Source: Nitrospirota bacterium
GTDB lineage: Bacteria; Nitrospirota; UBA9217
Direction of reading: 5' to 3'
Assembly (NCBI GenBank): GCA_035623825.1
Contig: DASPSR010000020.1
Location: 81,978-145,977 of the forward strand
Length of the DNA: 64,000 bases
The notes beneath the pieces were generated by a model. The model worked only from the letters and a program-made list of their open reading frames with translations, did not search any database and had not been told where the DNA came from. Both the position numbers and the translations under genes were made by a program. The number at the start of each line of letters is the position of its first letter. Position 1 is the stretch's first letter. Positions 1 through 20,669 of the stretch are shown here, in pieces.

Positions 1-629
1 GCTGTATGGTGTGACTGATCGTGACAGACCTCGCACTGCGTGCCGGCCGGATCGCCGCTGGTTGTGACATGATGGGACACGATCGAAGCATTGCTTCCAA
101 AATCCCCCTCTGGACCTGTGATAATGCGCCGCGGGCCCAGGACGTACGAGTGGCATCCGCTGCAAAACTGGAAATTCACAGTCTCGGTCCCGTACCAGTC
201 GAGCGTGTCCGTTCCATGGCAGTTGAGGTCTGTGCACGACCCGGTGTGAGGCCCGGTTTCGTTTATCCATCTGCCGTTCGGGTTCGTCGAATCGAAATAA
301 ACAATTAGAACGGCGGGATTGCCTGTATCAAGAACCCCGTTCATGTGGGTTGGCTTAGTATAATATCCAAAGTGACATTTCTGGCAGGCAAGGCCTATAA
401 CTTGGACATGAGCGACATGCTTTCCAAATGTGCCTGTTCCATTCGTCACCAAAGGATCTGGTGATGCCGTGCTCGTCGAATTATGACAGACTGCGGTACA
501 GTCTGTTATCGGAGGCCCTGGAGTCACCTGCTTTGTTGATATGGCATCAGGCCCCGGACTGTAACTGCATCCGTAAGCGAGGAGGGCTATCGAAATCAAA
601 CCGATTATATGCAAAAAAAACGTTTTCAT
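1..629 (-). CDS. Lipoprotein multiheme c-type cytochrome, partial (runs off the left edge); absent from ORF track
   Basis: Manual translation from ATG at 629: MKTFFLHIIGLISIALLAYG-C (lipobox), then CTAVCH, CQKCH, CTDLNCH, CSGCH, CEVCH; no stop before position 1. Confidence 0.88.
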   Translation of the reverse strand, partial: MKTFFLHIIGLISIALLAYGCSYSPGPDAISTKQVTPGPPITDCTAVCHNSTSTASPDPLVTNGTGTFGKHVAHVQVIGLACQKCHFGYYTKPTHMNGVLDTGNPAVLIVYFDSTNPNGRWINETGPHTGSCTDLNCHGTDTLDWYGTETVNFQFCSGCHSYVLGPRRIITGPEGDFGSNASIVSHHVTTSGDPAGTQCEVCHDQSHHT

Positions 630-645
630 CAAAACCGCTGCCCCA

Positions 646-1248
646 TTATTGTTTATGGCACAACCCGCAGTTCAAGGCCGGACTTACCGGATGCGGTGCT
701 GACGTATGCCGCGCGACTTTGTGGCATACGACGCAGTTGTCAGCCGGTGCGAAACTGCCGCTGTAATGACACCATGTGCAATGCCGTTTGAGCCAGTTCC
801 CGACATGGGTCCGCGGCTTGGTCTCGTTGTGGCATCTAACGCAAAAGTCCTGCTTATGACATGTCATGCAGCGCTCGCGGTTGCCTTCCGCCATGAACCC
901 GTGGCTCAACGTGCGCCAGGTGTTCGTATGGTCGCGAGGCTTCCTCGTGTTATGACAGGTAATGCAATCATTCCACTTGTGACAGGTGAGACAGGATTTC
1001 CCGCTCTGGCCCGCCTCATTGAAGTTCATATTGGCCGATGCGCCATGAAACTCGATCCAGTTCCCCTTGTGCGAATCCGGCCTGGGGAACGGAATTTTGC
1101 CCCCGCCAGTTCCCGACACGCCAGACTGCACCGCTGGTGCGTAGCCGCCGTCTTCCGCTTGCACGTTCGCGCTGCTGCCCATCAGGCACGCCGCGGTGAG
1201 CACAATGCAGATGACGAACATTGTCATGACACGGACATTAAAAATCAT
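646..1248 (-). CDS. Periplasmic heptaheme c-type cytochrome
   Basis: Signal peptide from ATG 1248 (MIFNVRVMTMFVICIVLTAA...); 7 CXXCH: CLTCH, CITCH, CMTCH, CVRCH, CTWCH, CVVCH, CGLCH. Confidence 0.9.
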   Translation of the reverse strand: MIFNVRVMTMFVICIVLTAACLMGSSANVQAEDGGYAPAVQSGVSGTGGGKIPFPRPDSHKGNWIEFHGASANMNFNEAGQSGKSCLTCHKWNDCITCHNTRKPRDHTNTWRTLSHGFMAEGNRERCMTCHKQDFCVRCHNETKPRTHVGNWLKRHCTWCHYSGSFAPADNCVVCHKVARHTSAPHPVSPALNCGLCHKQ

Positions 1249-2653
1249 AGCGCATCCCCAGTTTAAGCGTCTGATAGTTCTCGATGCCGGACTCATACTC
1301 ATAGCCGCCGTTTATCGAAATTCTCTTGCTGAGCGGATATCTTCCGTTTATATAATACGTACGCACGTTTTCTCTGAGTCCTTCTTCAACGTAATAATCG
1401 TACTTGTAGAGGCTGTAGTAGGTCCCGGCGTTTATACTGGCGCTCTTTTTGTTTTTGAAGGTATATCCGATATCAAGCCCCGCAGAGTAGTAGTGCGTTC
1501 CCGTGGTTTCCCACCGTTCGCCGGTAAGGGTGAACGCAAAGTCTTTCGGCAAATCGATGAGTTCGAACACCAGAAAGGCCCGGCTGTAATCCTTGTCGAA
1601 CGCGCTCTCCTCGTTCTCTTCCAGAAGGCCCCGTTTGAAGTAGCCGACGTCCACCGCATAATGCAGACCGAAGAGCTTTCGGAGTTTCACATCAATGCTC
1701 TGGTAGGGAGCCGACTGTCCGAGGACCGCATAGTACAGTGAGAGCTCGTTCGAGAGTTCGTTCTGGGTGGAGAATTGACGGAAGTAGTTAACGTACATTT
1801 CGGTGTCCGCTTCGGGAAAGGAGCTTATGGCCTTCACACTCAGGTCCCGCGGATCGTCGTTGAGATAACGGTACTTGACTGAGGCCTTCAAGAACGTTCC
1901 GAAGCTCTGCCAGAGCTTGAGGGAGATCATCCGGTCGTGCAAATCGACCGGGGTAGACGATGTAGGGGGTGATTGTTCATCCTCGACGAACAGATAATCC
2001 AAGCTGAACCTGGTGCTCGTGCCGAGAGCATAATCGAGGCCGGCACCAGCCAAGGTGTCATCGCCCCAGTGATAGCCAATCTCATAGAGATGGACGGCGA
2101 CACCGCCGTAAAGCGTCACATTGAGCGGGGAAGATGGCTTGATGTCGGCTGCGATACCGTCAAAAAAGACCTGCTCGTCCCTCGTACCCGTCTGCCTCCC
2201 CATCCGTATCTGCGTGAAATACGGAAAGGGATTATTGATATCGAGATGCGCCTCGTAAAGGTATGCGTGGTATGAAGCCTGGTAGGTATCACCGATGTCT
2301 TTCAGGGGATTAAAAAACGTCTGGTTATTGAGACCGCTAAAATCATTTCTCGCGGTCCCGAAGAAATGAAATTCGTAACGGTTCTCCTTCGGCATGGTGG
2401 CATCAAGCCGCAGTTCCCCGTAAGCGTCCTGATCCCTCCACGTCGTATCGGAATAAGCGGCCGTTCGGTACTCGTATCTGCCGGCAAGATACCCGCTAAT
2501 ATTGAAAAGATTATCCGATGATTGTTCAGATCCGGACACGTCTACGGACGTCGTATACGCAAACAGATGAAAGGGGGAAAGAACGAACAACGAAAAGAGA
2601 AGTAAGAGGACTGAGAGAAGTATGCGGCGAAATAGTATATTTTTATTCTTCAA
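1238..2653 (-). CDS. Outer-membrane beta-barrel protein, putative porin of a porin-cytochrome conduit
   Basis: Signal peptide, Tyr/Gly/Asp-rich amphipathic strands, C-terminal beta-signal LKLGMRYDF; directly upstream of two multiheme cytochromes. Confidence 0.8.
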   Translation of the reverse strand: MKNKNILFRRILLSVLLLLFSLFVLSPFHLFAYTTSVDVSGSEQSSDNLFNISGYLAGRYEYRTAAYSDTTWRDQDAYGELRLDATMPKENRYEFHFFGTARNDFSGLNNQTFFNPLKDIGDTYQASYHAYLYEAHLDINNPFPYFTQIRMGRQTGTRDEQVFFDGIAADIKPSSPLNVTLYGGVAVHLYEIGYHWGDDTLAGAGLDYALGTSTRFSLDYLFVEDEQSPPTSSTPVDLHDRMISLKLWQSFGTFLKASVKYRYLNDDPRDLSVKAISSFPEADTEMYVNYFRQFSTQNELSNELSLYYAVLGQSAPYQSIDVKLRKLFGLHYAVDVGYFKRGLLEENEESAFDKDYSRAFLVFELIDLPKDFAFTLTGERWETTGTHYYSAGLDIGYTFKNKKSASINAGTYYSLYKYDYYVEEGLRENVRTYYINGRYPLSKRISINGGYEYESGIENYQTLKLGMRYDF

Positions 2654-2703
2654 ATATATATTCCCCCGTTGCTCCTGAACTACAATAGATAATAATCGAT
2701 AAA

Positions 2704-2732
2704 ATCATAATCTTGATCAGTGCTCCTGTCAA
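2704..2732 (-). promoter_or_regulatory. Sigma70-type promoter for the porin-cytochrome operon
   Basis: Minus strand TTGACA-17 nt-TATGAT. Confidence 0.6.
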
Positions 2733-2882
2733 GTGAATTTTCCTGATGTTCCTGGTATGATCTCATGGTATTCCAAATGTTAAACAGTCTTGATTTTGCG
2801 TTCGAAGAATGCTATGGTATTTATGCATGCTCAGAAACTTATTCCTATCTTCGTCCCCTGGCTAAAAGGAGAAAAAATCTCC

Positions 2883-3635
2883 GTGAGGATAAAACCAGTT
2901 TTATCGATTACGCTTCTTTCCCTGTTCTGCATGTACTCCCAGGCCTCATCGGCGGAGATCGACTGCCTCCAGTGCCACGAGGAGCTTACCAAAGGGAAAA
3001 GCGTTCACGCGGCCGTTTCCATGGGTTGCACCGCCTGCCACACCGCCGTAGATGCAACAGACATCCCGCATAAGATGACATCTAAGATCCCGAAAGGGCT
3101 TTCCGCCGAACAGCCCGACCTGTGCTACGGATGCCATGACAAATCTCTGTTTAACAAAAAATTCGTGCACCCCGCTATAGGCATGGGTTGCACCAGCTGC
3201 CACAACCCTCATGCAAGCAAATACGCAAAGCTCCTGATCTCAGATCTCCCGGACCTGTGTTATGGCTGCCACGACAAGGGAATTTTCACGAAGAAGAACG
3301 TTCACCCTCCGGTTGCCGCAGGACAATGCTTGTTCTGCCACGACCCCCACTCCTCGGACTTAGCTTTCCGGCTTGAAAAGCCTATTGACGTACTCTGCGA
3401 GACCTGCCATGCCGGCAAGTCTTCGGGAAAACACATCCTTGCAGGATACGGTCTCGGCGATCGTCACCCGACGAAAGGCGTACCCGACCCCTCGCATCCC
3501 GGAAAAGAGCTCTCCTGCACAAGTTGTCACAGCGTTATTCATTCCTCGAATGGGAAGTTCCTGTTCCCGGACGAAGCTGTTCGCTCCGGCAATATGTGCC
3601 TGCTGTGCCACATAAAGATCAGTGTCCGTCCATGA
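2883..3635 (+). CDS. Periplasmic nonaheme cytochrome c (doubled-CXXCH repeat type)
   Basis: GTG 2883 after AGGAG; signal peptide; 9 CXXCH in repeated HxP..G.CxxCHxPH...LCxxCH units. Confidence 0.88.
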   Translation: MRIKPVLSITLLSLFCMYSQASSAEIDCLQCHEELTKGKSVHAAVSMGCTACHTAVDATDIPHKMTSKIPKGLSAEQPDLCYGCHDKSLFNKKFVHPAIGMGCTSCHNPHASKYAKLLISDLPDLCYGCHDKGIFTKKNVHPPVAAGQCLFCHDPHSSDLAFRLEKPIDVLCETCHAGKSSGKHILAGYGLGDRHPTKGVPDPSHPGKELSCTSCHSVIHSSNGKFLFPDEAVRSGNMCLLCHIKISVRP

Positions 3636-3715: not shown

Positions 3716-4624
3716 ATGCGAATCCATCCCGCTATCGTTTTGCTCCTCTCCGTTTTATCTTTTCCCTCGCTCTCGTTTGCTACGCCGGACTACGCCCGGC
3801 AGACGGGATTTGAGTGCAAGCACTGCCATATAGACGCCATCGGTGGCGGTCCGCTCACCCAGGCCGGGAAAATGTTTCTTGATGATATGAAGGTCAAAGG
3901 ACTCTATCGGCCCCTGACCCCTGCGCAGCGGTACGTGCGCCTGATAATCGGATACCTGCACCTCGTGACGGCGATCGTCTGGTTCGGAACGATCATGTAT
4001 GTCCATGTCCTCCTGAAGCCCGCTTACGCTTCTAAAGGCCTTCCAAAGGGCGAACTCAGGCTCGGCTGGCTTTCCATGATCATGATCCTCATATCGGGCG
4101 CGCTGCTGACAGTATCCCGGATCCCCGCTTGGAACGTCTTCGTCACCACCCGCTTTGGCATCCTGTTGAGCATAAAAATATTTCTGTTCCTTATCATGCT
4201 CGCCAGCGCGTTAGTTGTGACCATCTATATCGGCCCAAAATTAAAGAAACAGAAGGGCCTTGCCGCTTCTCTTGAGCCCGGCGACTGTACCCTTGACGGC
4301 CTTGCCCCGTTCGATGGTAAGGACGGCAGGCCCTCATACATTGCCTATAAGGGTATCATCTACGATGTGACGAGAAGCAGGTTTTGGAAGAACGGATCGC
4401 ACGTTATGAAGCATGCGGCGGGAAACGATCTGACTGATTTCCTCAAGAACGCGCCTCATGGTGAAGACAGGATCCTTACCATGCCGCAGGTGGGCAAGCT
4501 CCTGGCATCTGAGGCAAAACCACGTCGACCATTCCATGAACGGCTCTTCTACTTCTTTGCATATATGAACCTCGTTCTCGTGTTCGTCATCACGTTCATC
4601 ATCGCACTCTGGAGATGGTGGTAA
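3716..4624 (+). CDS. Fusion protein: Cyc2-like monoheme c, CopD-like 4-TM bundle, cytochrome b5-like domain
   Basis: Signal peptide; PDYARQTGFECKHCH..LTQAGKMF; TM HLVTAIVWFG; b5 signature YKGIIYDVT..W..G.H...HAAGNDLT....APHG. Confidence 0.75.
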   Translation: MRIHPAIVLLLSVLSFPSLSFATPDYARQTGFECKHCHIDAIGGGPLTQAGKMFLDDMKVKGLYRPLTPAQRYVRLIIGYLHLVTAIVWFGTIMYVHVLLKPAYASKGLPKGELRLGWLSMIMILISGALLTVSRIPAWNVFVTTRFGILLSIKIFLFLIMLASALVVTIYIGPKLKKQKGLAASLEPGDCTLDGLAPFDGKDGRPSYIAYKGIIYDVTRSRFWKNGSHVMKHAAGNDLTDFLKNAPHGEDRILTMPQVGKLLASEAKPRRPFHERLFYFFAYMNLVLVFVITFIIALWRWW

Positions 4625-4735: not shown

Positions 4736-5050
4736 ATGGAGGTGCTCGATCTCAAGAAGTTGATGAAGTTCAACCCTGACAAGATATCACGAGAAATGCT
4801 GTCCGACAAGCCCGAGATGCGCGTCGCGCTCATGTGCTTGAGCCCTGGCCAGAAGCTTGAGCCCCACAAGGCGCCGTTGCGACTCATGATGTACTGCGTC
4901 GAAGGAACGGGGACTTTCACCGTTGGTGAAGAGAAAATCGAGGCGGACGAGAAAACCTGCATCCTGTGCGATCCGTCGGTGCCGCATGGTTTTGAGGCGA
5001 ATAAGGGCCAGAAACTCGTCGTCATGGCGGTTGTGACACCGGTGGATTGA
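4736..5050 (+). CDS. Cupin domain protein
   Basis: LSPGQKLEPH...YCVEGTGTFTVG...PHGF cupin motifs; AGGAGG SD. Confidence 0.85.
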   Translation: MEVLDLKKLMKFNPDKISREMLSDKPEMRVALMCLSPGQKLEPHKAPLRLMMYCVEGTGTFTVGEEKIEADEKTCILCDPSVPHGFEANKGQKLVVMAVVTPVD

Positions 5051-5105: not shown

Positions 5106-5135
5106 AAAAACGCCCTCACTTCCAAGTGAGGGCGT
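5106..5135 (-). terminator. Intrinsic terminator with U-tract on the minus strand (may be bidirectional)
   Basis: Perfect inverted repeat ACGCCCTCACT/AGTGAGGGCGT preceded by AAAAA on +. Confidence 0.65.
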
Positions 5136-5341: not shown

Positions 5342-5384
5342 TATGACATGCATCATACCAGAAAATTGCGTTTTGGATTATGCT
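5342..5384 (+). promoter_or_regulatory. CRP/FNR-like box TATGA-N6-TCATA (5342-5357) with -10 TATGCT; norCB promoter
   Basis: GTATGA-catgca-TCATAC; -10 at 5379-5384, 21 nt downstream. Confidence 0.78.
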
Positions 5385-5424
5385 TTTCCCGTTACTGGCA
5401 AAAATCCAAACCAAGGAGGTGCGT

Positions 5425-6108
5425 ATGGGAAATAAAGCAGCGAGGAATCTCTTTATCATTGGCAGTCTCTTCTTCTTCGTGGTCTTCCTTGCCCTCACAG
5501 TCGACACACTGGGGAAACTCGACAAACGGGCACCGGAAATCACGCAAGCAGTTGACGACGGCAAAATGGTATGGCACAAGTACGATTGCATCGGATGCCA
5601 TACCATTCTCGGGAACGGGACCTATTTCGCTCCCGACCTGACCAAGGTAGCTGCTCGTAAGCCGAAAAGCTACCTTAAGCAGTTCATCATGGACCCCAAA
5701 GGAGTAAAGGGAGACGCGGTGATGCCCACTCTTGGGATCAGCTCCACCGAAGCTGACAACCTTCTGGCTTTTCTCGACTGGATGTCCAAGGTCGACACGA
5801 ACGGTTGGCCTCCCAAACCGATACTTGCAACGGCCGCTGGCGTCGGGGGAAAAGAGCTGACTGCCGGACAACTGGTGTACCAGGCGCAGGGCTGCTCCAA
5901 CTGCCATTCCATCAGCGGCATCGGCGGGACCTCTGGACCGGACCTGACGAAGGTAGGGAGCAGGCGCGATCGTGACTGGTTAATCGGCCATTTCAAGGAC
6001 CCGCAGAAATATGTGAAGAATTCCGCGATGCCGCCGGTCACTGCCTCTAATGAGGAGATCGACCAACTCACAGCATACATGCTTACACTCAAGGAGGCGA
6101 CAAAATGA
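5425..6108 (+). CDS. norC: Nitric oxide reductase cytochrome c subunit NorC, diheme variant
   Basis: N-terminal TM; GKMVWHKYDCIGCHTILGNGTYFAPDLT NorC signature; second CSNCH domain; AAGGAGG SD; overlaps norB. Confidence 0.9.
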   Translation: MGNKAARNLFIIGSLFFFVVFLALTVDTLGKLDKRAPEITQAVDDGKMVWHKYDCIGCHTILGNGTYFAPDLTKVAARKPKSYLKQFIMDPKGVKGDAVMPTLGISSTEADNLLAFLDWMSKVDTNGWPPKPILATAAGVGGKELTAGQLVYQAQGCSNCHSISGIGGTSGPDLTKVGSRRDRDWLIGHFKDPQKYVKNSAMPPVTASNEEIDQLTAYMLTLKEATK

Positions 6109-7496
6109 CAATGAAATATAAAAGTCAAAGGATCGCGCAGTACTTTTACACCTTCGCGATCCTGCTGTTCCTCGTGCAGGTGCTCGTCGGCCTTATCGGC
6201 GCCCTCGAGTTCATATGGCCGAACTTCTTCTTCCTGAAGTTTCACATCATCAAGACGCTCCATGTGAATGCGCTCGTGATCTGGCTCCTCGCCGGTCTCA
6301 TGGGGGCGACCTACTATGTGGTTCCCGAGGAATCGGAAACGGAACTCTGGAGCTATCCTCTTGCCTTGTTTCAGTTCTGGGCAACGGTCGTTACCGTGAC
6401 CTTGGTGGTGATCGGCTATATATGGATGGGTTTCGACCCCCAGGCGAATAAGACGGTGTTCGGCACTCTGATACTGAACGAAGGCCGCGAGTATATCGAG
6501 GCCCCGCGCTGGGCGGACATTCTCATCGTGGTCTCGGTGCTTCTGTTCCTGTTCAACAACTTCATGACCATGTTCAAAACCAAGAAATGGACCGGAATTC
6601 AGGGCACGCTCCTGGGCGGCCTCGTGTTTTTGGCACTCATGTATCTGCCGGGCATGGTCTATACCAAGAGCATGGTCAAGGACCAGTTCTGGTGGTGGTG
6701 GGTGGTCCATCTCTGGGTAGAGGGCGCATGGGAGGTCATCGCGGGCGCCTTGCTCGCATTCATGCTGATGAAGGTGATCGGCGCGAAGCGTGAAGTGCTT
6801 GAAAAATGGATGTACATTGAGGTGGGCCTCGTAATGTTCACGGGTCTTTTAGGCACCGGCCATCACTATTACTGGATCGGAACGCCGGGATACTGGCTCT
6901 GGGTCGGCGGAATCTTCAGTTCCCTGGAACCCCTTCCCTTGCTCCTAATGGTCTGGGATGCGTTCAGGACGACTAGGGAGGCGCGGCAGGTCACGAACCG
7001 TGCCGGACTGTACTATACCGTGGCGCACGCGATCTTCAATTTCGTGGGCGCGGGCCTCTGGGGTGTGATCCACACCCTCCCACAGGTGAATAAGTGGACG
7101 CACGGCACGCAGATCACCGCGGCACACGGCCACCTCGCGTTCTACGGGGCCTATGTGCTTCTGGTGATGTCCATGATCTATGTGACCCTTCCGGCGATCC
7201 GGGGAGTGAAAGAGTACGATCCGGGAAGAGCCTTTGCGTCTTTCTGGTGGATGACGATCTCAATGATATTCATGGTGTTCGTGCTCACCGGGGCAGGAAT
7301 GGTGCAGGTCTACATGGAGCGGCTCATGGGGCTCGACTATGAGGCCGTGAAGGCGAATTACAATCTCTGGTTCTGGGTCTTCCGTGCGGTCTTCGGCGCC
7401 GGGTTCCTTGTGGGCGTCGCCATCTTCGTCGTCGACTACTTCAAGCTCGGCGGGGAAGCGGCCCCTGCGCTTCAGACGGCAACGGACCGCGGTTGA
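6105..7496 (+). CDS. norB: Nitric oxide reductase catalytic subunit NorB (cNOR)
   Basis: WWWVVHLWVEG, GTGHHYYWIG, SSLEPLP, AHGHLAFYG, GREYIE motifs. Confidence 0.95.
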   Translation: MTMKYKSQRIAQYFYTFAILLFLVQVLVGLIGALEFIWPNFFFLKFHIIKTLHVNALVIWLLAGLMGATYYVVPEESETELWSYPLALFQFWATVVTVTLVVIGYIWMGFDPQANKTVFGTLILNEGREYIEAPRWADILIVVSVLLFLFNNFMTMFKTKKWTGIQGTLLGGLVFLALMYLPGMVYTKSMVKDQFWWWWVVHLWVEGAWEVIAGALLAFMLMKVIGAKREVLEKWMYIEVGLVMFTGLLGTGHHYYWIGTPGYWLWVGGIFSSLEPLPLLLMVWDAFRTTREARQVTNRAGLYYTVAHAIFNFVGAGLWGVIHTLPQVNKWTHGTQITAAHGHLAFYGAYVLLVMSMIYVTLPAIRGVKEYDPGRAFASFWWMTISMIFMVFVLTGAGMVQVYMERLMGLDYEAVKANYNLWFWVFRAVFGAGFLVGVAIFVVDYFKLGGEAAPALQTATDRG

Positions 7497-8851: not shown

Positions 8852-8894
8852 TATGACCTGAATCATATTCATTTTTCTCTGCATGTACTATAAA
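8852..8894 (+). promoter_or_regulatory. CRP/FNR-like box TATGA-N6-TCATA (8852-8867) with -10 TATAAA
   Basis: TATGA-cctgaa-TCATA; -10 at 8889-8894, 21 nt downstream. Confidence 0.72.
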
Positions 8895-8900
8895 TCCAGT

Positions 8901-9830
8901 ATGAAGACGGCCACCTTAACCACATATCGAAGGATCACCCAGGTGCTCTTTATCCTGTTTATCTTCCTCATGCCCGTATTGAACATATTCCGGTATGACA
9001 CGACAACCCATGAGCTGATCCTATTCGGAAACGTCTGGGGTCTCGGCCTTCGAGAGGGCTTCTCTTCCGACCATAGCATGGCCGGCTCGCTCCACATCCT
9101 GGTCCAATTTTTCTTAAAGGCGATCCTTCCCTGGCTCTTCATCCTGGCGATCTTTCCCCTTCTCGGCTATTTCACGGGAAGGTTCTTCTGCGGTTGGCTC
9201 TGTCCTGAAGGTGCTCTGTTCGAACTGTCCGATTTCCTGACCCTCAAGCTCCTCAACAGAAGAAGCCCGTACGGAAGGAGACCGAACGACCCGGAGGTGA
9301 CTTGCACGAACAAGATAGGATACGGGTTGATTGCGCTCGCATGCGCAACGGTCATCCCTGTCCTCGGAGGTGTGGCACTCACCGGTTATTTCGTTGCCTC
9401 GAAGACCATCTGGCACCAGATCTCGACCTGGAGCTTCACCTTCGGCGTCAAGGCAGGCATCATCGGCGTTTCTATCTACATGCTCATCACTTCGATATTC
9501 GTTCGACACGTCCTGTGCCGATTTGTCTGCGCCGCCGGACTTATGCAGATGCTGTTAGGCTGGATCAGCCCCGTCTCGCTCCGGCTCAGGATGGACGCGG
9601 CCCGGATATCAGCCTGCACTGACTGCAAGGGCTGCGACAAGGCGTGCTTCATGAATGTTACCCCGAGAAAGAACAAGCGGGACATCTCGTGCGTGAACTG
9701 CGGGGCGTGCATCGAAGCGTGCAACAGAGAACTCGGCGAAGGAAAAGGTCTGTTCCATTTTGAATTTGGCGACGGATATGCTTCACCTCACAAAAAAACC
9801 GCGGGGATATTTCAACCGAAGAACACTTAA
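8901..9830 (+). CDS. Membrane-bound 4Fe-4S ferredoxin (NapH/CcoG-like)
   Basis: GRFFCGWLCPEG, CRFVC, CTDCKGCDKAC, CVNCGACIEAC plus TM helices; start 8901 chosen from promoter position (track gives 8883). Confidence 0.85.
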   Translation: MKTATLTTYRRITQVLFILFIFLMPVLNIFRYDTTTHELILFGNVWGLGLREGFSSDHSMAGSLHILVQFFLKAILPWLFILAIFPLLGYFTGRFFCGWLCPEGALFELSDFLTLKLLNRRSPYGRRPNDPEVTCTNKIGYGLIALACATVIPVLGGVALTGYFVASKTIWHQISTWSFTFGVKAGIIGVSIYMLITSIFVRHVLCRFVCAAGLMQMLLGWISPVSLRLRMDAARISACTDCKGCDKACFMNVTPRKNKRDISCVNCGACIEACNRELGEGKGLFHFEFGDGYASPHKKTAGIFQPKNT

Positions 9831-10180: not shown

Positions 10181-10792
10181 ATGTCTAGTGAATGCTGTGG
10201 TATTCGGGTCGGCCAGACGGTGCCGGATTTCAAGCTTGAGACCTATGATCCCTCGAAGGGCGATTTCAGCGAGATCAGCCTCGCCGCGCAGAAAGCGGCA
10301 AAAAAATGGACGGTTCTTTTCTTCTACCCTGCCGATTTCACTTTTGTTTGAGCGACGGAATTTGCTGCTCTGGCGGAGCAGTATGAAGCATTCAAAAAAG
10401 CCGGTGCCGAGGTGATTACTGTAAGCACCGATACCAAATTCGTCCACCTCGCATGGCAACGTGACGAGAAAATGCTCGAAAAAGTCAAATATCCCATGGG
10501 CTCTGATACTACCGGCAAACTGTCGCGATCATTCGGCGTCTATGATGAGGAGACAGGTCTTGCGCTGAGAGGGACGTTCATCATAAACCCTGATGGTGTT
10601 CTGCGCAACTCAGAAGTTAATTATTACAATCTCGGCAGGAACATCGAAGAAATGTTGCGGAAGGTCAACGCGAACATTCACCTCGCAGCAAACCCCGTTG
10701 AAGCTTGCCCAGCCCAGTGGAAGAAGGAAGGTGACAAGACACTGAAACCCTCCGCTAAAATGGTCGGCAAGGTGTATGAGGCGTTGAAGTAA
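10181..10792 (+). CDS. prxU: Selenocysteine-containing peroxiredoxin (AhpC/Prx1 type), 203 aa, Sec at codon 57 (TGA 10349-10351)
   Basis: AGGAGG SD and ATG 10181; FFYPADFTFV-TGA-ATE aligns with FYPxDFTFVCPTE; frame continues into track ORF 10412..10792 with resolving ACPAQW. Confidence 0.93.
10352..10383 (+). promoter_or_regulatory. Bacterial SECIS hairpin
   Basis: Stem TGCTGCTC (10363-10370)/GAGCAGTA (10376-10383), G-containing loop TGGCG starting about 20 nt after the UGA. Confidence 0.75.
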
Positions 10793-11249: not shown

Positions 11250-12650
11250 ATGAGCGATTATCAATACGATAATCAGACGGTAAAAGGTTTTATCGTCTCC
11301 TCGATCTTCTGGGGAGTTGTCGGGATCGTGATCGGGCTCTGGATCTCGGTACAGATGTGGATGCCGTCGCTGAACTTCCCGCCCTATTTTACCTTCGGAC
11401 GGCTCAGAGTGGTGCATACGAACGGGCTCGCCTTCGGGCTCGGGATCGGCGCGATATTCGGGATTTCCTACTATATCATAATGCGGCTCACGAAGCGACC
11501 TCTCCTCTTCCCGAAACTCGCACGGTTCCACCTCTGGTTCTTCAACGTCGCCATCCTGCTCGCGGCGCTCAGCCTCCTTGCAGGCATGAACCAGTCGAAT
11601 GAATACGCAGAGCTGGAATGGCCGCTTGACATCGCCGTCGTCATCCTCTGGGTCATCTTTGCCGTCAACGTCTTCGGCACGATCATCAAGCGAAAAGAAG
11701 AGCAAATGTACATTTCTCTGTGGTATATCCTCGCGACGACTGTCGCCGTCGCCGTTCTGTATATCGTGAACAATCTCTCGATCCCCGCGGGCTGGAATAA
11801 ATCCTACCATCTCTTTGCGGGCGTCAACAGCGCCAATGTAGAGTGGTGGTACGGACACAATGCGGTAGGATTCATTTTTACGACGCCGATTCTCGCAATG
11901 TTCTATTATTTCCTGCCGAAGTCCACGGGCCTGCCGATTTACAGCCACCGCCTTTCCATCATAGCTTTCTGGTCGCTCGTGTTTGCCTATCTCTGGACAG
12001 GAGCGCACCACTTGGTCTATACGCCTCTGCCCGACTGGATCCAAACCCTCGGGATCGCCTTTACCATCTTCCTGATCGCTCCGTCCTGGGGCTCGGTAGT
12101 GAACGGTTACTATACGGTCGGTAATGACTGGTCGAAGATGCAGACGAACTACCTTACCAAGTTCTTCATCCTCGGTATCACCTTCTATGGCCTGCAAACG
12201 GTCCAGGGTCCGACACAGGGACTGCGTGTCGTCAGCCAGTTGATCCACTTCACCGACTGGGTCCCCGGCCATGTGCACATGGGCACCATGGGATGGGTGA
12301 CCATGACCGCTGCCGCATCGATGTACTACATCATCCCGAAGATCTACAACACGTCGATCTACAGCGAGAAGATCGCGAACATCCATTTCTGGCTCGTGCT
12401 GATCGGGCAGCTCATATTCTCGATCACCATGTGGATCACGGGGATCATGCAGGGTGCCCTCTGGAAAGCGACGAACCCCGATGGAAGCCTTAAGTATACG
12501 TTCGTAGAGGTAGTAGCGAAGAACTATCCATTCTGGAAAATGAGAACGCTCGGGGGCGTGATCTTCACGGTCGGCATGCTCTTTTTTATCTACAATATCT
12601 ATATGACCATGCGCAAAGGCAAGCTTGAGCTTGCCGAAGCGAAGGCATAG
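11250..12650 (+). CDS. ccoN: cbb3-type cytochrome c oxidase subunit I
   Basis: FGRLRVVHTN, EYAELEW, WWYGHNAVGF, WTGAHHL, WVPGHVHMG. Confidence 0.96.
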   Translation: MSDYQYDNQTVKGFIVSSIFWGVVGIVIGLWISVQMWMPSLNFPPYFTFGRLRVVHTNGLAFGLGIGAIFGISYYIIMRLTKRPLLFPKLARFHLWFFNVAILLAALSLLAGMNQSNEYAELEWPLDIAVVILWVIFAVNVFGTIIKRKEEQMYISLWYILATTVAVAVLYIVNNLSIPAGWNKSYHLFAGVNSANVEWWYGHNAVGFIFTTPILAMFYYFLPKSTGLPIYSHRLSIIAFWSLVFAYLWTGAHHLVYTPLPDWIQTLGIAFTIFLIAPSWGSVVNGYYTVGNDWSKMQTNYLTKFFILGITFYGLQTVQGPTQGLRVVSQLIHFTDWVPGHVHMGTMGWVTMTAAASMYYIIPKIYNTSIYSEKIANIHFWLVLIGQLIFSITMWITGIMQGALWKATNPDGSLKYTFVEVVAKNYPFWKMRTLGGVIFTVGMLFFIYNIYMTMRKGKLELAEAKA

Positions 12651-12661
12651 GGGGTGATAAC

Positions 12662-13246
12662 ATGGCAGATGCTCTCTATAAGAAACCGATATTGTTCGCT
12701 ATCGTCGCGGCAGTCGTCATCCTGATCGGGACCGCTGTGACCATGTTCATTCCGATGCTGACGCCGGAAATGCATCCGAAACTGGCGAACCTCAAGCCCT
12801 ACACAGCGCTCCAGCTCGCCGGCAAGGACATCTACCAGCGGGAAGGCTGCAATAACTGCCACACCCAGACGGTGCGACCTCTGAAGACCGAGGTCATGCG
12901 GTATGGCGAATACTCGAAAGCGGGGGAATTCGCCTACGACCGGCCTTTCCTCTGGGGTTCAAAGCGCACCGGTCCCGACCTGGCACGCATCGGCGGGAAA
13001 TATCCCGATCAGTGGCACGAGATACACTTCGATAATCCGCAGGCCATGTACGCGGAGTCCAACATGCCCGCCTACGGTTGGTTGAAGCAAAACAAGCTCG
13101 ATCCATCGGACATCGAAGCCCACATGAAGGCAAATGATTTCCCGTACACGCGCGATGAACTCGCACAGCTCAAGGACAAGACTGAGCTTGATGCGCTGAT
13201 CGCGTACCTCCAGGTAATCGGCACGGCAGTCACCAAGGCGAAATGA
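12662..13246 (+). CDS. ccoO: cbb3-type cytochrome c oxidase subunit II
   Basis: REGCNNCHTQ, WGSKRTGPDLARIGGKY, SNMPAY. Confidence 0.96.
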   Translation: MADALYKKPILFAIVAAVVILIGTAVTMFIPMLTPEMHPKLANLKPYTALQLAGKDIYQREGCNNCHTQTVRPLKTEVMRYGEYSKAGEFAYDRPFLWGSKRTGPDLARIGGKYPDQWHEIHFDNPQAMYAESNMPAYGWLKQNKLDPSDIEAHMKANDFPYTRDELAQLKDKTELDALIAYLQVIGTAVTKAK

Positions 13247-13266
13247 CAGAGAGGAGGAATATTAAA

Positions 13267-13458
13267 ATGGCGGAACAATCGGACAACGATAATATCGAGG
13301 CATTCGAATCAAAAGAGACGGGACGTCGCATTCCCCTCGGATGGCAGCTGTTGTTCTGGGGCCTGATCCTCTGGGGCATTTACTACGTCGCCGCGCATAC
13401 GCCGGCCATTAGCGGATGGTCACAGGAGCGCGCGTACACGGAATCATTGAAGCCGTAA
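13267..13458 (+). CDS. CcoP/FixP N-terminal domain-only protein (no heme motif)
   Basis: IPLGWQLLFWGLILWGIYY resembles the FixP_N helix; AGGAGG SD; follows ccoO. Confidence 0.75.
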   Translation: MAEQSDNDNIEAFESKETGRRIPLGWQLLFWGLILWGIYYVAAHTPAISGWSQERAYTESLKP

Positions 13459-13547
13459 CCCCCCTGGAGCCGGAGGATTTCAGTCGCTATGGCGCGGCCC
13501 CGGCTCCGCTTTCACCCCTTGCAACAAAAAAATCAGGGAGGTGTTTT

Positions 13548-13649
13548 ATGGATATATCTGTTGCTGCAACAATCGGTTTTACCACAACTGCGGTGATCGG
13601 CATCATTGTGCTCTACTTTTCCGTCAGAAAAAGAAAAAACAGCAGGTAG
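13548..13649 (+). CDS. 33-aa single-TM microprotein in the cco operon
   Basis: GGGAGG SD; MDISVAATIGFTTTAVIGIIVLYFSVRKRKNSR. Confidence 0.65.
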   Translation: MDISVAATIGFTTTAVIGIIVLYFSVRKRKNSR

Positions 13650-13802
13650 TCAGTTCCGAGCGAATTGCAAAGATTGGAAGTAAGCATCGCTGAGGCCAAA
13701 AGGCATCAAGGATAGCCTTTCAAAACCCCTATGAGCCTTGCGAGAAAGCTTCCTGGTGCTGACGCTTGACCGGACCAATTTGGAGAAAGTTGAGGCAATC
13801 TC

Positions 13803-13946
13803 ATGGAAAAGCAAGCATGGGCATATATCGTGTTCGGGCTCGTCCTGGTAGTGCTCTTCGTGATCATTATCGTGCATTATTATTCCAGGAAGCGGCACAA
13901 AAAGGTTGAAGAAATAAAGTATAAAATGCTGGATGACGATGAGTAA
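13803..13946 (+). CDS. ccoQ: CcoQ-like small subunit (47 aa); absent from ORF track
   Basis: MEKQAWAYIVFGLVLVVLFVIIIVHYYSRKRHKKVEEIKYKMLDDDE: one TM, basic patch, acidic tail; overlaps ccoG start. Confidence 0.75.
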   Translation: MEKQAWAYIVFGLVLVVLFVIIIVHYYSRKRHKKVEEIKYKMLDDDE

Positions 13947-15153
13947 GAAGTTCCACAGACTCAGGCGATTTTCCGGAGCAGTTCTTCTCTTGTTTCTTAT
14001 CGGTGTCCCCTTTCTGCGGATGCACGGAGAGAGCGCCTTTCGGTTCGATATCCCGTCACTCCGGCTTTTATTCTTCGGAACCAATATATGGCTGGCCGAC
14101 TTTTTCATCATCCTGGTCGCCGTCATCTTCCTGACCTTCCTGATCATTTTCACAACGACCGTCTTCGGGAGACTGTGGTGCGGCTGGCTGTGTCCGCAGA
14201 CCGTTCTGGTCGATACTACAACTTTCGTGGCAGCGGCCTGGGAACGGGGGCATGCCGCCAGAGCCGTCGCCGCTTCTGCGGGTCTCACGGTGAGCGCGGT
14301 CATTGCCGCAAGCCTGATCGGATATTTTGTATCGCCCTATGATATTCCATCTCTGCTCCGGACCGGCGGCACACCCGCGAAGATAGTACTAGGCTCCTGG
14401 CTTGCGCTTTCAGTGATCATGTTTCTTGATCTGATCGCGCTACGGAGAGGTTTTTGCGCAACGGTCTGCCCCTATGCGAAACTTCAGAGCGTTCTGTTCG
14501 ACGATAGGACGCTCGTAGTCGCATTCGATTCCCGTCGAGCTGACGAGTGCATGCAGTGCAATGCCTGCGTGCAGGCCTGCCCCGTCGGAATCGACGTCAG
14601 GAGAGGCTCTCAAATGGCCTGTATCCACTGTGCCGAGTGTGTGGACGCCTGCACGGAGCGGATGGCCCGGCGTGACCGGAAATCGCTTGTCCAGTACAGC
14701 TTCGGACTTCCTGGTCAACGGGGCGTCGGCGTACGCGTGAACCCTCTGATGACCGGCGTCATCACCGCGATTTCACTTGTGCTTCTTGTTTATCTTTCCT
14801 TGTCGCGAATGCCCTTCGATGTGAGCGTTCGTCTGAACTATGCCGATGCGCCAGGGATGCGGTCAAACGGAAGCGTCACAAATTCATACATCCTATCGCT
14901 CAGGAACATGGGGACGTCCGATCTTGAAATCGATGTGAGTGCAGCCGCTTCGGCAGGGTCGGTCCTGGTGTCCCCTGACGTCGTGTTGCTCAAAAGAGGT
15001 ACGGACATCACGAGAGTGCCGGTCTCGGTGACCCTGAACGGCGCATCAGGCGAAGAAAAGCATCCCTTGATGATCACTCTGACCGTCGGATCGAAACAGG
15101 TCAATAAGAAAATCACGAAAATTGTGTACTTCATGATGCCGAACAAAAATTAA
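13939..15153 (+). CDS. ccoG: CcoG/FixG/RdxA 4Fe-4S accessory protein
   Basis: GRLWCGWLCPQT, FCATVCPYAKLQS, CMQCNACVQACP, CIHCAECVDAC, C-terminal Ig-like domain. Confidence 0.9.
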   Translation: MSKKFHRLRRFSGAVLLLFLIGVPFLRMHGESAFRFDIPSLRLLFFGTNIWLADFFIILVAVIFLTFLIIFTTTVFGRLWCGWLCPQTVLVDTTTFVAAAWERGHAARAVAASAGLTVSAVIAASLIGYFVSPYDIPSLLRTGGTPAKIVLGSWLALSVIMFLDLIALRRGFCATVCPYAKLQSVLFDDRTLVVAFDSRRADECMQCNACVQACPVGIDVRRGSQMACIHCAECVDACTERMARRDRKSLVQYSFGLPGQRGVGVRVNPLMTGVITAISLVLLVYLSLSRMPFDVSVRLNYADAPGMRSNGSVTNSYILSLRNMGTSDLEIDVSAAASAGSVLVSPDVVLLKRGTDITRVPVSVTLNGASGEEKHPLMITLTVGSKQVNKKITKIVYFMMPNKN

Positions 15154-15164
15154 AGGGCCAGAAC

Positions 15165-15620
15165 ATGCGCACCCTAATCATAGTGATCTGCGTCATAGCG
15201 CTTGCCGCGACAATCGCGGCGATCGTCGTCGGAAGTCGGAGTTTCGAGGGCCTCGTGGTAGATAAACCCTACGAAACGGGAATGGCGTGGGATGAAATGC
15301 GGCAGAAACGGGCAAGCCTCGGATGGACGGTTTCCGTGCAGGGAGCGCCTTTCAAAACCGGCAAAAATGAATTGATCGTAAAGATTCTCGATAAGAACGG
15401 TTCACTGCTTACGGATGCCACCGTCAGCGTAACGGTCAGCAGACCATCGACGCGCACATACGATAAAACCTATCAGGCCGTCCACGAGGCAGACGGCCGC
15501 TACCGTGCGTCCGTCGATCTTCTGCTCTACGGAAACTGGGACGTGACCATTGATGCCAGCCGCAATAATGACCGCTCCAGTTTTAAGGAAAAAATTTTTG
15601 CGGAACACGGCGGGAAATGA
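15165..15620 (+). CDS. FixH/CcoH-like protein
   Basis: N-terminal TM, GLVVDKPYETG, Ig-like DGRY..GNW; position between ccoG and ccoI. Confidence 0.75.
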   Translation: MRTLIIVICVIALAATIAAIVVGSRSFEGLVVDKPYETGMAWDEMRQKRASLGWTVSVQGAPFKTGKNELIVKILDKNGSLLTDATVSVTVSRPSTRTYDKTYQAVHEADGRYRASVDLLLYGNWDVTIDASRNNDRSSFKEKIFAEHGGK

Positions 15621-16084
15621 AGCGACCTCATGACCAGTTCGTCAATCTATTGATGTCCCTTGCCTGGGCTGTACTTCTGGCAGTGATTGGCGGGATTGGT
15701 GCGCCGCCCGATTCTGCCGCAGAGAACAGTACCACCTGCAATGTCCAAAACGGTTCCTGCCTCAAGGAAACAAGTGATGGAATGACGGTTGAATTTGATA
15801 TTCAGCCCAAGCCCGTTTTGTCTCTGTCCGAACTCGCGTTCAGCGCCATCCTCGCTCGAAGCGGAGCTCCCGTAACGGACGCGTCTGTCGTACTCGATCT
15901 CTCCATGCCTGGCATGTATATGGGAAAGAACCAGCCGAGCCTGAAGTTCGCAAAGAACGGACGATATGAATGGAAAGGGATCATCGCGAGGTGTCCCAGT
16001 GGAAGTAGGATTTGGCAGGCTGAACTGACGATAATACAGGGGGGTAAGACGACTAAGGTTGATTTTGTGTTCGAGGTAAAATGA
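15617..16084 (+). CDS. Exported YtkA/FixH-like protein with MPGMYMG motif
   Basis: Signal peptide, LSMPGMYMGKN, three Cys. Confidence 0.65.
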   Translation: MKRPHDQFVNLLMSLAWAVLLAVIGGIGAPPDSAAENSTTCNVQNGSCLKETSDGMTVEFDIQPKPVLSLSELAFSAILARSGAPVTDASVVLDLSMPGMYMGKNQPSLKFAKNGRYEWKGIIARCPSGSRIWQAELTIIQGGKTTKVDFVFEVK

Positions 16085-16085
16085 C

Positions 16086-16763
16086 GTGGAGACGGGATTT
16101 CTACTAGCGCTCACGACCGGCGTTCTGGGAGGCTTTGGCCATTGTATCGGCATGTGCGGCCCCCTCGTGGCGTCATATGCACTTGCGCGGGATGCGGAGC
16201 CTCGGCCGATCTTCATCCGGCTTGCCCCGCACCTGCTCTATAATCTGGGCCGCATGACCACCTACGGACTCATCGGCGCTATCATGGGGCTTTCGGGATC
16301 ATTCGTCAATGTCGCCGGCAGGCTTACCGGCGTCCAGAACGTCGTTGCCGTCGCTGCCGGCGTCATGATGGTCTTCATGGGACTGAGCATCGCCGGCGTA
16401 GGAGGCACGACGGCATGGATCGAGAAACATAATCTCCCTGTCCTCCGTGCGGCGCAGCAGGTCCTCGCCTCGTCTTCAATGCTTCGCTACTATCCGCTCG
16501 GTCTCCTCCTCGGGTTGCTCCCCTGCGGCCTGTCATACACAGTCTTCATTGCGTCCGCCGGGACCGGCGGCTTGGTTTCTGGAATGCTGACCGCCCTGCT
16601 GTTCGGACTCGGTACAGTGCCTGCACTCCTCGCCTTCGGGGCGGTCATGTCCTCTCTCCGGGCAGCCCTCCGTAACACGATCTACAGGACAAGCGGAGCG
16701 ATCGTCATGATCATGGGGATCTATTTTCTATTCAGAGGTCTAAAGCCCTATGCCAACCTGTGA
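16086..16763 (+). CDS. DsbD_2/TauE-like membrane protein (oxidase copper-handling accessory)
   Basis: GHCIGMCGP, YNLGR, GLLPCGLSY, FGLGTVP. Confidence 0.88.
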   Translation: METGFLLALTTGVLGGFGHCIGMCGPLVASYALARDAEPRPIFIRLAPHLLYNLGRMTTYGLIGAIMGLSGSFVNVAGRLTGVQNVVAVAAGVMMVFMGLSIAGVGGTTAWIEKHNLPVLRAAQQVLASSSMLRYYPLGLLLGLLPCGLSYTVFIASAGTGGLVSGMLTALLFGLGTVPALLAFGAVMSSLRAALRNTIYRTSGAIVMIMGIYFLFRGLKPYANL

Positions 16764-19203: not shown

Positions 19204-19388
19204 TGTGGAGCGTGTTTCTTCTGATATTCCTTACGCTCTGCGCCGGTTTCGCCGGGTGGATGTTCTTTCTCTGGGCGGTCAAGAGCGGGCAGTACGATGA
19301 TATCGAAGGACCGAAGTATCGGATGCTCGAGGATGAGGAAAAAGAAAAAAGAAAAGATGAAGGGAAAAAAGAAGGAAAAGAAGATTGA
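19203..19388 (+). CDS. ccoS: cbb3 oxidase maturation protein CcoS
   Basis: FLWAVKSGQYDDIEGP signature. Confidence 0.92.
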   Translation: MWSVFLLIFLTLCAGFAGWMFFLWAVKSGQYDDIEGPKYRMLEDEEKEKRKDEGKKEGKED

Positions 19389-19414
19389 TCTGCCGCAATT
19401 CGGAAGTGTCTCAA

Positions 19415-19960
19415 TTACACCCAGTACTCCGGATATTTTCTGCTCTTCGAAAGATTGTTCACGAGCAGGGCGATAACCAGCAGCACAGCGGCGCCCGTAC
19501 CTGCGGGAATGAAAGCATAGAGGAAACCGAGGTTGTGAATTTTTGCTCCGCCGATGACAGCGATGAGCGCCGTCGCTCCTCCGGGCGGGTGGAGCGTTTT
19601 GGTGACTAGCATGACGACGATGGCCACGGAAACGGCCATCGCTGCTGCCACCCAGATGGTGTTGCCGAACAGCTGATAGCATGCAACGCCTGCAAGGCCT
19701 GAGAGCACGTGTCCTCCGATGAGGTTTCTCGGCTGGGCCAGCGGGCTTTTGATAGCACTGTACACAAGGACCGCCGAAGCGCCGAACGACCCGATGAGCA
19801 TCGTCATGTCTCGTGGTTCGAAGTACCACGATGAGAGATAACCGCACACACCGATGCCGAGCGCCGATCCAAGCCATGACCAGACCATTTCGATGATGCC
19901 GACGCCGGGCGGGCTCTTTGCACCGCCTTTCATCTTTGATAGATATTCAGCGATGGTCAT
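19415..19960 (-). CDS. HPP family membrane protein
   Basis: GSFGASAVL, SPLAQPRNLIGGH, LHPPGGATAL. Confidence 0.93.
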   Translation of the reverse strand: MTIAEYLSKMKGGAKSPPGVGIIEMVWSWLGSALGIGVCGYLSSWYFEPRDMTMLIGSFGASAVLVYSAIKSPLAQPRNLIGGHVLSGLAGVACYQLFGNTIWVAAAMAVSVAIVVMLVTKTLHPPGGATALIAVIGGAKIHNLGFLYAFIPAGTGAAVLLVIALLVNNLSKSRKYPEYWV

Positions 19961-20015
19961 GATATCCCATCCACAATAAGACGGTCTCCATGGCTTTCTT
20001 CTTCCGTCTTCCTCC

Positions 20016-20603: not shown

Positions 20604-20626
20604 TCGTCCTCTCATGATATTGTCCG

Positions 20627-20669
20627 ATGATAACAGAACCACCAAAGACCTGGTATGACGAAAATCATA
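20627..20669 (-). promoter_or_regulatory. CRP/FNR-like box TATGA-N6-TCATA (20654-20669) with extended -10 TGtTATCAT; CBS-HPP promoter
   Basis: TATGA-cgaaaa-TCATA; minus-strand -10 at 20632-20627, 21 nt away. Confidence 0.75.

Follow-up and report, generated by a model that had tools for sequence, protein, structure and literature searches.

How could a bacterium connect the multihaem cytochromes of its periplasm with the cytoplasmic face of its inner membrane through a single polypeptide? This question is raised by the gene at 3716..4624 (+) of a 64,000-nucleotide stretch of Nitrospirota DNA (GTDB lineage UBA9217; GenBank assembly GCA_035623825.1, contig DASPSR010000020.1, positions 81,978 to 145,977), which as a whole is called the window below. 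The predicted product combines a Cyc2-type haem c module, a CopD-type four-helix bundle and an inserted cytb5M domain. An initial annotation, made from the DNA letters without database searches, had proposed a possible one-protein electron wire across the membrane. Here, we report a computational analysis of this protein and its relatives, which form a widespread and uncharacterized family of bacterial membrane proteins. Electron exchange between periplasmic cytochromes and the cytoplasmic membrane face is the simplest function that would use all of its parts, and we give this reading an even chance of being right.

The open reading frame (ORF; 3716-4624, plus strand) is translated without a stop into 302 residues. 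Alternative in-frame starts are found at 3698 (ATG) and further upstream, and one database cluster representative has 330 residues; since every candidate start lies upstream of one hydrophobic signal-peptide core, the mature protein is independent of the choice. Hydropathy places a signal peptide at residues 3-22 and four transmembrane (TM) segments at approximately 73-98, 113-135, 146-172 and 280-299. The AlphaFold2 model, for which the alignment consisted of 32 diverse relatives, has a predicted local distance difference test score (pLDDT) of 86.1 and a predicted template modelling score (pTM) of 0.75; it comprises helices at 69-99, 111-135, 146-185 and 273-301 and a small alpha/beta domain at 187-263. 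Pfam CopD matches residues 115-179 (37.1 bits, above the cut-off of 32.1) and Pfam Cyt-b5 matches residues 200-262 (30.6 bits, above the cut-off of 23.7). Hydropathy, Pfam and the model all agree with the layout given in the initial annotation, namely a signal peptide, a haem c module, three TM helices, a b5-like domain and a fourth TM helix, and the two histidines noted on TM1 are H82 and H97. The fourth helix is present as described, but it completes the CopD-type bundle to which the other three belong; the b5 domain is therefore inserted into the loop between TM3 and TM4.

The signal peptide (aa 1-22, 3716..3781) is predicted from hydropathy to end between ...SLSFA and TPDY, with the mature end in register with the cleavage region in Cyc2-like proteins. 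It is followed by the putative periplasmic monohaem c module (aa 23-62, 3782..3901; ATPDYARQTGFECKHCH...PLTQAGKMF), in which CXXCH occupies residues 34-38 (nucleotides 3815-3829). To characterize this module, a set of Cyc2-like proteins was collected by scanning metagenome contigs for DNA encoding PxFARQTGxxCxxCH. The motif lies behind a signal peptide in all 80 loci with fetched flanks; 56 of the 80 ORFs are complete and at least 365 residues long (407-541 aa), all 56 have a single CXXCH and 42 of them end in F, Y or W. The downstream pattern LTxxGRxF, which the initial annotation had given as part of the Cyc2 mark, recurs in these ORFs as a common '...LTxFGRxFKLxGYT'. When all 23,751 six-frame ORFs of the target's own genome were searched with a hidden Markov model (HMM) of the module built from the 80 metagenomic proteins, the target ranked second (E = 3.2e-8, residues 22-54), behind a 433-residue Cyc2-like porin on another contig (E = 2.1e-15) and ahead of a next match at 0.047; 31 of the 32 relatives match at E <= 0.22. 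As the 80 sequences had been chosen by the motif, some of this similarity is a product of the selection, whereas the match of the unselected downstream LTxxG[KR]xF and the spacing from the cleavage site are independent of it. Furthermore, hhalign of the family against 30 full-length Cyc2-like proteins gave a probability of 97.8% (E = 6.9e-13, 55 columns). These significant profile similarities confirm the Cyc2-type N-terminus that had been proposed, and judged by them the module is homologous to the Cyc2 cytochrome module. A word-based protein search with residues 18-72 alone returned 185 candidates, all of the protein's own family, and reached no Cyc2; ESM Atlas features of residues 20-72 gave uninformative scores of 0.81-0.82 to unnamed clusters.

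In the sections of the Cyc2 survey by Keffer et al. (2021; PMC8406198) that are used here, a Cyc2 has a signal peptide, one CXXCH, the motif AXPXFAR[Q/K][T/Y], a downstream PXL, at least 365 residues and a porin, and the motif is called unique to Cyc2. A strict regular expression of the Cyc2 motif matched the target alone in its own genome. In the target, this stretch is P-D-Y-A-R-Q-T, where Tyr replaces the Phe of strict PXFAR[Q/K][T/Y]; the family consensus at this position is E-Y-A-x-x-T-G, and the Cyc2-like porin of the same genome likewise has Tyr. The target resembles Cyc2 in the signal peptide that leads directly into A-x-P-x-[FY]-A-R-Q-T-G-x-x-CxxCH...L-T-x-x-G-[RK]-x-F, in the single N-terminal CXXCH and in a module secondary-structure pattern that is the same as in its own genome's Cyc2-like porin. 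Nevertheless, it is an inner-membrane alpha-helical bundle protein, whereas Cyc2 resides in the outer membrane. We rejected the target as a genuine Cyc2 on account of the Tyr, of its 302 residues, which fall short of 365, and of a model that is helical, except for small strands in the b5 domain, where Cyc2 has a 16-strand beta-barrel; the module is indeed without a porin, as the initial annotation stated. At the level of the module, the notion of a motif unique to Cyc2 therefore fails, and a Cyc2-type motif on an inner-membrane protein matters for motif-based searches for iron oxidizers. The Cyc2-like fused cytochrome-porin of this genome (L252:238-1536, contig C48, 433 aa, VPSYARQVKKPCTACH, end ...EMLF) is modelled as an all-beta body of about 20 strands that is preceded by three short helices. 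Because its genome encodes this protein, the organism may be able to oxidize Fe(II).

The second haem domain (aa 187-263, 4274..4504) is of the cytb5M type, the MAPR-like prokaryotic form represented by 6NZX and 6VZ6. With Foldseek, 6vz6 (E = 5.5e-7, target TM-score 0.92) and 6nzx (E = 1.5e-6, target TM-score 0.90) stand far above the classical cytochromes b5, with a root-mean-square deviation (rmsd) of 0.9-1.0 A and 44% identity. The sequences of the cytb5M structures are matched by phmmer at E = 2.2e-15, and VIA aligned 77 residues of the b5 domain with cytb5M (Z 14.6, rmsd 1.6). In the portion of the cytb5M report relied on here (10.1101/2021.11.30.470528), the crystals hold a haem that is ligated by H42 and H61 and contacted by S34 and H46. 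An ungapped alignment relates H42/H61/S34/H46 to H229/H248/S221/H233 of the target, when a one-residue offset between the numbering of the paper and that of the PDB chain is allowed for, and the axial His pair and the equivalents of S34 and H46 are all present. Haem b binding by the predicted domain is well supported by this correspondence. The initial annotation had pointed to the histidines of HAAG and APHG; H248 of APHG is an axial ligand, but H233 of HAAG corresponds to the haem-contacting H46, and the other axial ligand is H229 of 'GSH'. The target domain differs from the solved cytb5M proteins in its setting, since these are small soluble domains of about 78 residues whereas it sits in the cytoplasmic loop of a membrane protein. 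The b5-domain relatives also included P0135, P0142 and P0159 (457-655 aa), which carry four to six tandem cytb5-type domains and are without CopD.

On which sides of the membrane do the two haem sites lie? Cytochrome c maturation attaches c-type haem exclusively in the periplasm. The exported haem c site is followed by three helices, which puts the b5 domain in the cytoplasm. Multihaem c domains follow TM4 in six of the 17 longer or partial relatives that were scanned (P0150, P0166, P0182, P0153, P0151 and P0168); they contain three to eight extra CXXCH, with no further hydrophobic or TM segment. Likewise, five of the 25 correctly extracted relatives from a second phylum, that of a metagenome-assembled genome (MAG) labelled Thermodesulfobacteriota, have nine CXXCH in genes of 726-747 aa. 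The C-termini of these fusions are periplasmic, and therefore the b5 domain, one helix upstream, is cytoplasmic. Judged from the sequences, the haem c site is periplasmic and the b5 site cytoplasmic; the opposite sides that had been assigned to the two domains are thus borne out by the C-terminal fusions, and the domains do not share one side.

Between the two sites lies the helical bundle. TM1 (aa 69-99, 3920..4012) contains the invariant H82-x6-W89-x-G91 and the family-specific H97, TM2 (aa 111-135, 4046..4120) has the conserved E113 at its cytoplasmic end, TM3 (aa 146-185, 4151..4270) contains M161 and K154, the latter conserved across the superfamily, and TM4 (aa 273-301, 4532..4618), the fourth bundle helix, has the conserved Y283. 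In an alignment with E. coli YebZ and the CopD genes of the target's own genome, H82, W89, G91 and G148 are invariant and K154 is nearly so. H82 is the equivalent of YebZ H154, and H97 is specific to the target family, being found neither in YebZ nor in three aligned paralogues. As far as the CopD survey is available (PMC11923076), it reports that YebZ H154A abolishes copper uptake and that truncated four-helix CopDs with one of the two histidines account for approximately 35% of the CopD family, and it mentions cytochrome-fused CopD forms. A CopD proper has eight TM helices and both His residues (YebZ H135 and H154); the target has four helices and the H154 equivalent only, a layout that fits the truncated class as described in those parts of the survey. 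The likeness to the CopD importers (PF05425, YebZ) lies in H-x6-W-x-G and the TM3 lysine of the four-helix core. The differences are the halved number of helices, the absence of an H135 equivalent and of a nearby CopC partner, and the addition of haem c and haem b5 domains and of the conserved H97.

This kinship raises redox-assisted copper handling as an alternative, which we consider unlikely. The truncated core would bind or import copper at H82/K154 as YebZ does, the haem c and b5 domains would set the redox state of the copper, and copper would be supplied to respiratory enzymes together with a CcoG/NapH-like protein. The Pfam CopD match above its cut-off, the H82-H154 equivalence with W89, G91 and K154 conserved across YebZ and the CopCD genes of the same genome, the effect of H154A and the frequency of truncated CopDs are all in line with it. 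The missing H135 equivalent argues against it, as does the NCBIfam CopD model, of which the second half aligns with residues 71-180 at 32.3 bits against an equivalog cut-off of 195; the gene neighbourhood, described below, bears on both sides.

The core has conserved polar residues at two depths: H82/K154 outside and H97/E113/Y283 inside. On TM1, 15 residues separate H82 from H97, so that H82 would lie near the outer and H97 near the inner membrane level. The His/Glu/Tyr trio H97, E113 and Y283 is at the cytoplasmic ends of TM1, TM2 and TM4, with Y283 replaced by His in two relatives, and may form either a second site for a cofactor or one for a quinone. When the bundle was compared by VIA with known dihaem proteins, it gave Z 12.3 (rmsd 2.0, 104 residues) against the designed two-haem 7ah0 and Z 9.4-10.4 against cytochrome b6, FdnI and CybB. 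Apart from generic four-helix bundles, neither Foldseek nor VIA matched the membrane core to a solved structure.

We also predicted a homodimer of residues 66-302 with four haems included. The interface score ipSAE was 0.76 (runs 0.75, 0.77 and 0.76) versus 0.00 for the best of three controls; in calibration 20 of 30 solved pairs and one of 23 single chains scored this high, which is only a rough guide here, as the prediction used its own alignment and ligands. Contacts agree by at least 65% among the runs, with a partner pLDDT of at least 78. The predicted interface, which includes the contacts 87-87' and 91-91', is formed by TM1 and the end of TM4, and a homodimer through TM1/TM4 is probable in the light of this model. 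That the bundle itself holds redox cofactors, with the dimer as a self-contained chain from haem c through membrane cofactors to haem b5, is possible yet doubtful.

The family is large. At E <= 1e-3, a word-indexed search returned 2113 proteins; among the top 120, identity is 69-100% and nearly all have both Pfam domains. Named members are called 'CopD family protein' or 'cytochrome b5', and they come mostly from Nitrospirota MAGs. An exhaustive search of 50%-identity representatives gave 1849 matches, with 646 at E <= 1e-10 and 112 at E <= 1e-30, and a peptide-pattern scan of one genome per species found a relative encoded in 426 genomes. The family is present in 34 of 121 evenly sampled Nitrospirota genomes, mostly as a single copy, and a near full-length copy is present in 33 of 301 sampled genomes of the second phylum, where the other 46 matches at E <= 1e-25 cover the b5 domain only. 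Among 32 diverse full-length relatives, C34, C37, H38, H82, G91, G128, K154, W224, G227, H229, H233, P247 and H248 are invariant, H97 and S221 are each kept in at least 90%, and Pfam CopD and Cyt-b5 are found in 32 and 31, respectively. All 25 second-phylum members keep C34, C37, H38, H82, H97, E113, K154, H229, H233, H248 and Y283; five loci are omitted from these counts owing to crude ORF calling, three without a target ORF (L230, L245 and L248) and two with wrong ORFs (L236 and L238). In the full-text literature, a scope to which subscription journals and supplements do not belong, neither a description nor a characterized member with this architecture was found, in agreement with the initial annotation, which knew of no such protein.

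With which proteins would the target exchange electrons? In the window, the gene follows that of a nonahaem c-type cytochrome of the DmsE-like kind (2790..3635, +; nine CXXCH) and precedes that of a small cytoplasmic cupin (4736..5050, +; 104 aa, with CxxC), and a consensus terminator scan found no terminator-like site between the three. Further downstream on the same strand are norC and norB of a cNOR-type nitric oxide (NO) reductase (5380..7496), which phmmer matches to the Pseudomonas cNOR structure (norC, 3o0r_C, 2.8e-29; norB, 3o0r_B, 1.4e-114), a membrane protein without a match, a NapH/CcoG-like membrane ferredoxin (8883..9830), a peroxiredoxin and an Rrf2 regulator, and a cbb3 oxidase cluster that includes ccoG, fixH and a copper-transporting ATPase (Cu-ATPase) gene (11250-19203). 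A strong palindrome with an 11-bp stem lies after the cupin gene at 5110-5135 (ACGCCCTCACTT GGAA ...); it is terminator-like on the minus strand, has a T tail and may be bidirectional, and it would separate the nonahaem, target and cupin genes from norCB. The NorC protein (5380-6108, +) has a second, C-terminal cytochrome c domain at about 147-242, residues 20-146 being those that match Pseudomonas NorC.

The relatives show which of these neighbours recur. In tblastn counts over the best 80 related loci, many of which are cut by contig ends, the cupin and norB are the most frequent neighbours (39 loci each), followed by norC (35) and the NapH-like gene (26). The initial annotation had named the adjacent nonahaem cytochrome as a possible partner; the relatives do not support this as a conserved pairing, as that gene is a neighbour in only four of the 80 loci and the recurrent partners are others. 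A divergent barrel-like gene and each of two multihaem genes beside it occur in three loci. The frequent order is norC-norB-target-NapH-like-cupin, and, as read from offsets, 17 loci have the end of norB immediately upstream of the target and 16 have the start of the NapH-like gene immediately downstream. Clustering the neighbours in 76 loci de novo added hybrid sensor kinases (22), PrmA (15), CBS proteins (14), HPP-family membrane proteins (12), PF13447 multihaem cytochromes (10) and NrfA-like cytochromes (6). For copper handling, the match of the NapH-like neighbour to CcoG (E = 1.7e-13) and the nearby cbb3 operon with ccoG, fixH and Cu-ATPase are favourable, whereas no CopC was found among the neighbour clusters present in at least four loci, and the most frequent enzyme partner, cNOR, is by textbook knowledge an iron enzyme and not a copper enzyme. 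Across the 121 Nitrospirota genomes, the family is found in 34 and norB (E <= 1e-60) in 27, with both in 20, the family only in 14 and norB only in seven; these were counted by hand, from relatives that are not independent.

In the second phylum, where 30 loci with 1.5-kb flanks were considered and 44 of 80 neighbour ORFs were scanned, a multihaem cytochrome of about 415-463 aa is adjacent to the target in six of the 30 loci and is fused to it in five. Among named families it comes closest to hydrazine dehydrogenase, which it matches in part and far below the cut-off, and by its sequence we take it to be an HAO-family-like octahaem protein. The cupin occurs once in these loci and the NapH-like gene is found in none of them. 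The common denominator of the neighbours is thus periplasmic haem enzymes of nitrogen-oxide metabolism, and not the nonahaem cytochrome. Fusion to octahaem cytochromes points to electron transfer and speaks against a role in copper handling. The same loci, with GAF sensor kinases near the target in five of 30, together with the hybrid sensor kinase/response-regulator neighbours in 22 of 76 loci and the Rrf2 regulator and a protoglobin fusion in the window, suggest a further alternative, in which the protein would be a redox, NO or O2 sensor or a haem-trafficking protein without steady electron throughput, its haems reporting the periplasmic redox state to cytoplasmic partners such as the nearby hybrid histidine kinases. 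This is very unlikely: the target has no output domain, kinase genes are common neighbours of many operons, and the octahaem fusion and tight norCB linkage better fit a respiratory component.

Electron exchange across the membrane would proceed as follows. After signal-peptide cleavage, the monohaem c module of about 40 residues, the same module as caps Cyc2 porins, would lie in the periplasm; three helices of the truncated CopD-type bundle would cross the membrane, the bis-His cytb5M haem b domain would hang in the cytoplasm and the fourth helix would return to the periplasm. The protein may serve as the membrane redox partner of the cNOR NorCB and of HAO-like octahaem cytochromes, which are fused to it in some relatives. 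The cytb5M domain would meet a cytoplasmic partner, for which the co-located cupin and the iron-sulfur (FeS) domain of the NapH-like protein are candidates. The analysis establishes how the protein is built and oriented, which ligands are conserved, how large the family is and which genes accompany it. Haem occupancy, one or two bundle cofactors at H82/K154 and H97 (with E113 and Y283), the passage of electrons through the membrane and its direction are all presumed in this scheme.

Several observations weigh against this reading. Electron transfer is limited to about 14 A edge to edge, so that the gap between the two haems needs intermediate cofactors, which are hypothetical. With only one conserved His per membrane level, a membrane electron wire is plausible but unproven. 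Among the bundle helices of the 32 relatives, conserved His residues are found on TM1 alone, which makes bis-His haems inside a monomeric bundle in the style of cytochrome b or FdnI impossible; the two His pairs on two helices that mark the dihaem four-helix cytochromes b (FdnI, cytochrome b6 and CybB) are absent, and the Z scores of 9-12 against dihaem bundles are in the range of generic helical bundles. The only universally conserved core ligand is the equivalent of the residue that YebZ needs for copper uptake, and since that H154 is essential there, H82 may bind copper and not haem. H82 and H97 are not among the confident residues of the predicted dimer interface, in which A87/G91 are packed tightly, and on these grounds interfacial bis-His haems between two TM1 helices were rejected as the leading model. 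An hhalign comparison with the haem-binding HemJ family, represented by 12 sequences from Nitrospirota genomes, put H82 and K154 in register but gave a weak match (probability 16.7%, P = 0.0015), and Pfam HemJ (PF03653, UPF0093) gave no match at E <= 1 among the 32 relatives. The association with NO reductase is not obligate either, as 14 of the 34 family-positive genomes are without this norB and norCB was found within 1.5 kb in none of the 30 second-phylum loci. Finally, the genome has a cytochrome b gene, so that a special electron route to cNOR is not required; the argument that cNOR needs a special donor for want of a bc complex was ruled out by this gene.

The HemJ comparison leads to another alternative, a membrane dehydrogenase of the HemJ/PuuD kind or a quinol:cytochrome c oxidoreductase, in which the bundle itself would oxidize or reduce a substrate in the membrane or at its cytoplasmic face, such as menaquinol at H97/E113/Y283. 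Electrons would be exchanged via the haem c module in an NrfH/NapC-like role for NrfA/HAO-like enzymes, and the b5 domain would be an auxiliary entry. The place of the target next to HAO-like and NrfA-like cytochromes is one in which a quinol dehydrogenase would be expected, and Urate_ox_N, the membrane domain of PuuD, matches four of the 32 relatives, with a best E of 0.0033. HemJ is a dimeric b-haem membrane enzyme according to the passages of a review used here (PMC13564367), and PuuD, as presented in the part of its description that we draw on (PMC4562309), is a membrane-bound urate oxidase that has a periplasmic cytochrome c, and for which the authors propose oxidation on the cytosolic side and outward passage of electrons. 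Like HemJ (PgdH2) and PuuD, the target has a small helical membrane core, weakly related in sequence, that would work with haem, a b haem in the HemJ dimer and a fused cytochrome c in PuuD. However, both similarities are weak, the relationship being at the edge of detection; protoporphyrinogen or urate as a substrate is unsupported here, and neither protein has a b5 domain. Nor does this reading account for the strictly conserved, complete cytoplasmic cytb5M domain of the target. We regard this alternative as quite improbable.

Other features of the window were noted. The peroxiredoxin gene (10181-10792, +) has an in-frame TGA in the context FTFV-U-ATEF, a position that we take to be the expected site of the peroxidatic Cys; if this TGA encodes selenocysteine, the reading frame runs uninterrupted from MSSECCG... 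to the stop, and the gene is a candidate for a PrxU-like selenoprotein on this reading. Homologues of its C-terminal part are found in 13 of 80 related loci. The minus strand upstream encodes multihaem cytochromes (3-632 and 646-1302) and a 471-aa protein (1238-2653, end ...MRYDF) with no family match; these genes are divergent from the nonahaem DmsE-like gene and together with it (3-3635) resemble a porin-cytochrome module, which is kept only in the three closest loci, L001, L002 and L028. The cbb3 cluster, which contains ccoN, ccoO, CcoG/FixG, FixH, DsbD_2 and Cu-ATPase genes, belongs to the stretch 11250-24353, and it is followed on the minus strand by genes for one HPP-family and one CBS protein, a protoglobin-PsiE fusion and a multihaem cytochrome of 802 aa. 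At 26616-28544 (-), a gene for an RtcB RNA ligase adjoins an archease gene.

If the bundle holds redox cofactors of its own, the protein would be a single-polypeptide transmembrane electron conduit on a fold that is not known for it, serving NO reductase and HAO-like octahaem enzymes in anaerobes, and the CopD/HemJ superfamily would be, at its root, a cofactor-binding redox bundle. With electron exchange across the membrane as its true function, it would represent an unrecognized route in many anaerobic Nitrospirota and Thermodesulfobacteriota by which periplasmic nitrogen-oxide chemistry is joined to the cytoplasmic side, and would bear on the detoxification or respiration of NO and nitrite in peat, aquifers and sediments. 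The poorly understood truncated CopDs would gain a redox context as well.

Transmembrane redox connections of this kind are known from the Tmc and Hmc complexes of sulfate reducers and from the NrfH/NapC-type anchors, multi-subunit systems built with cytochrome b or NrfD-type subunits and FeS proteins. The target would resemble them in combining a periplasmic c-type cytochrome, a membrane part and a redox centre at the cytoplasmic face in the service of periplasmic multihaem enzymes. It is unrelated to them in sequence and differs from them in that all of these parts would reside in one polypeptide, on a CopD fold.

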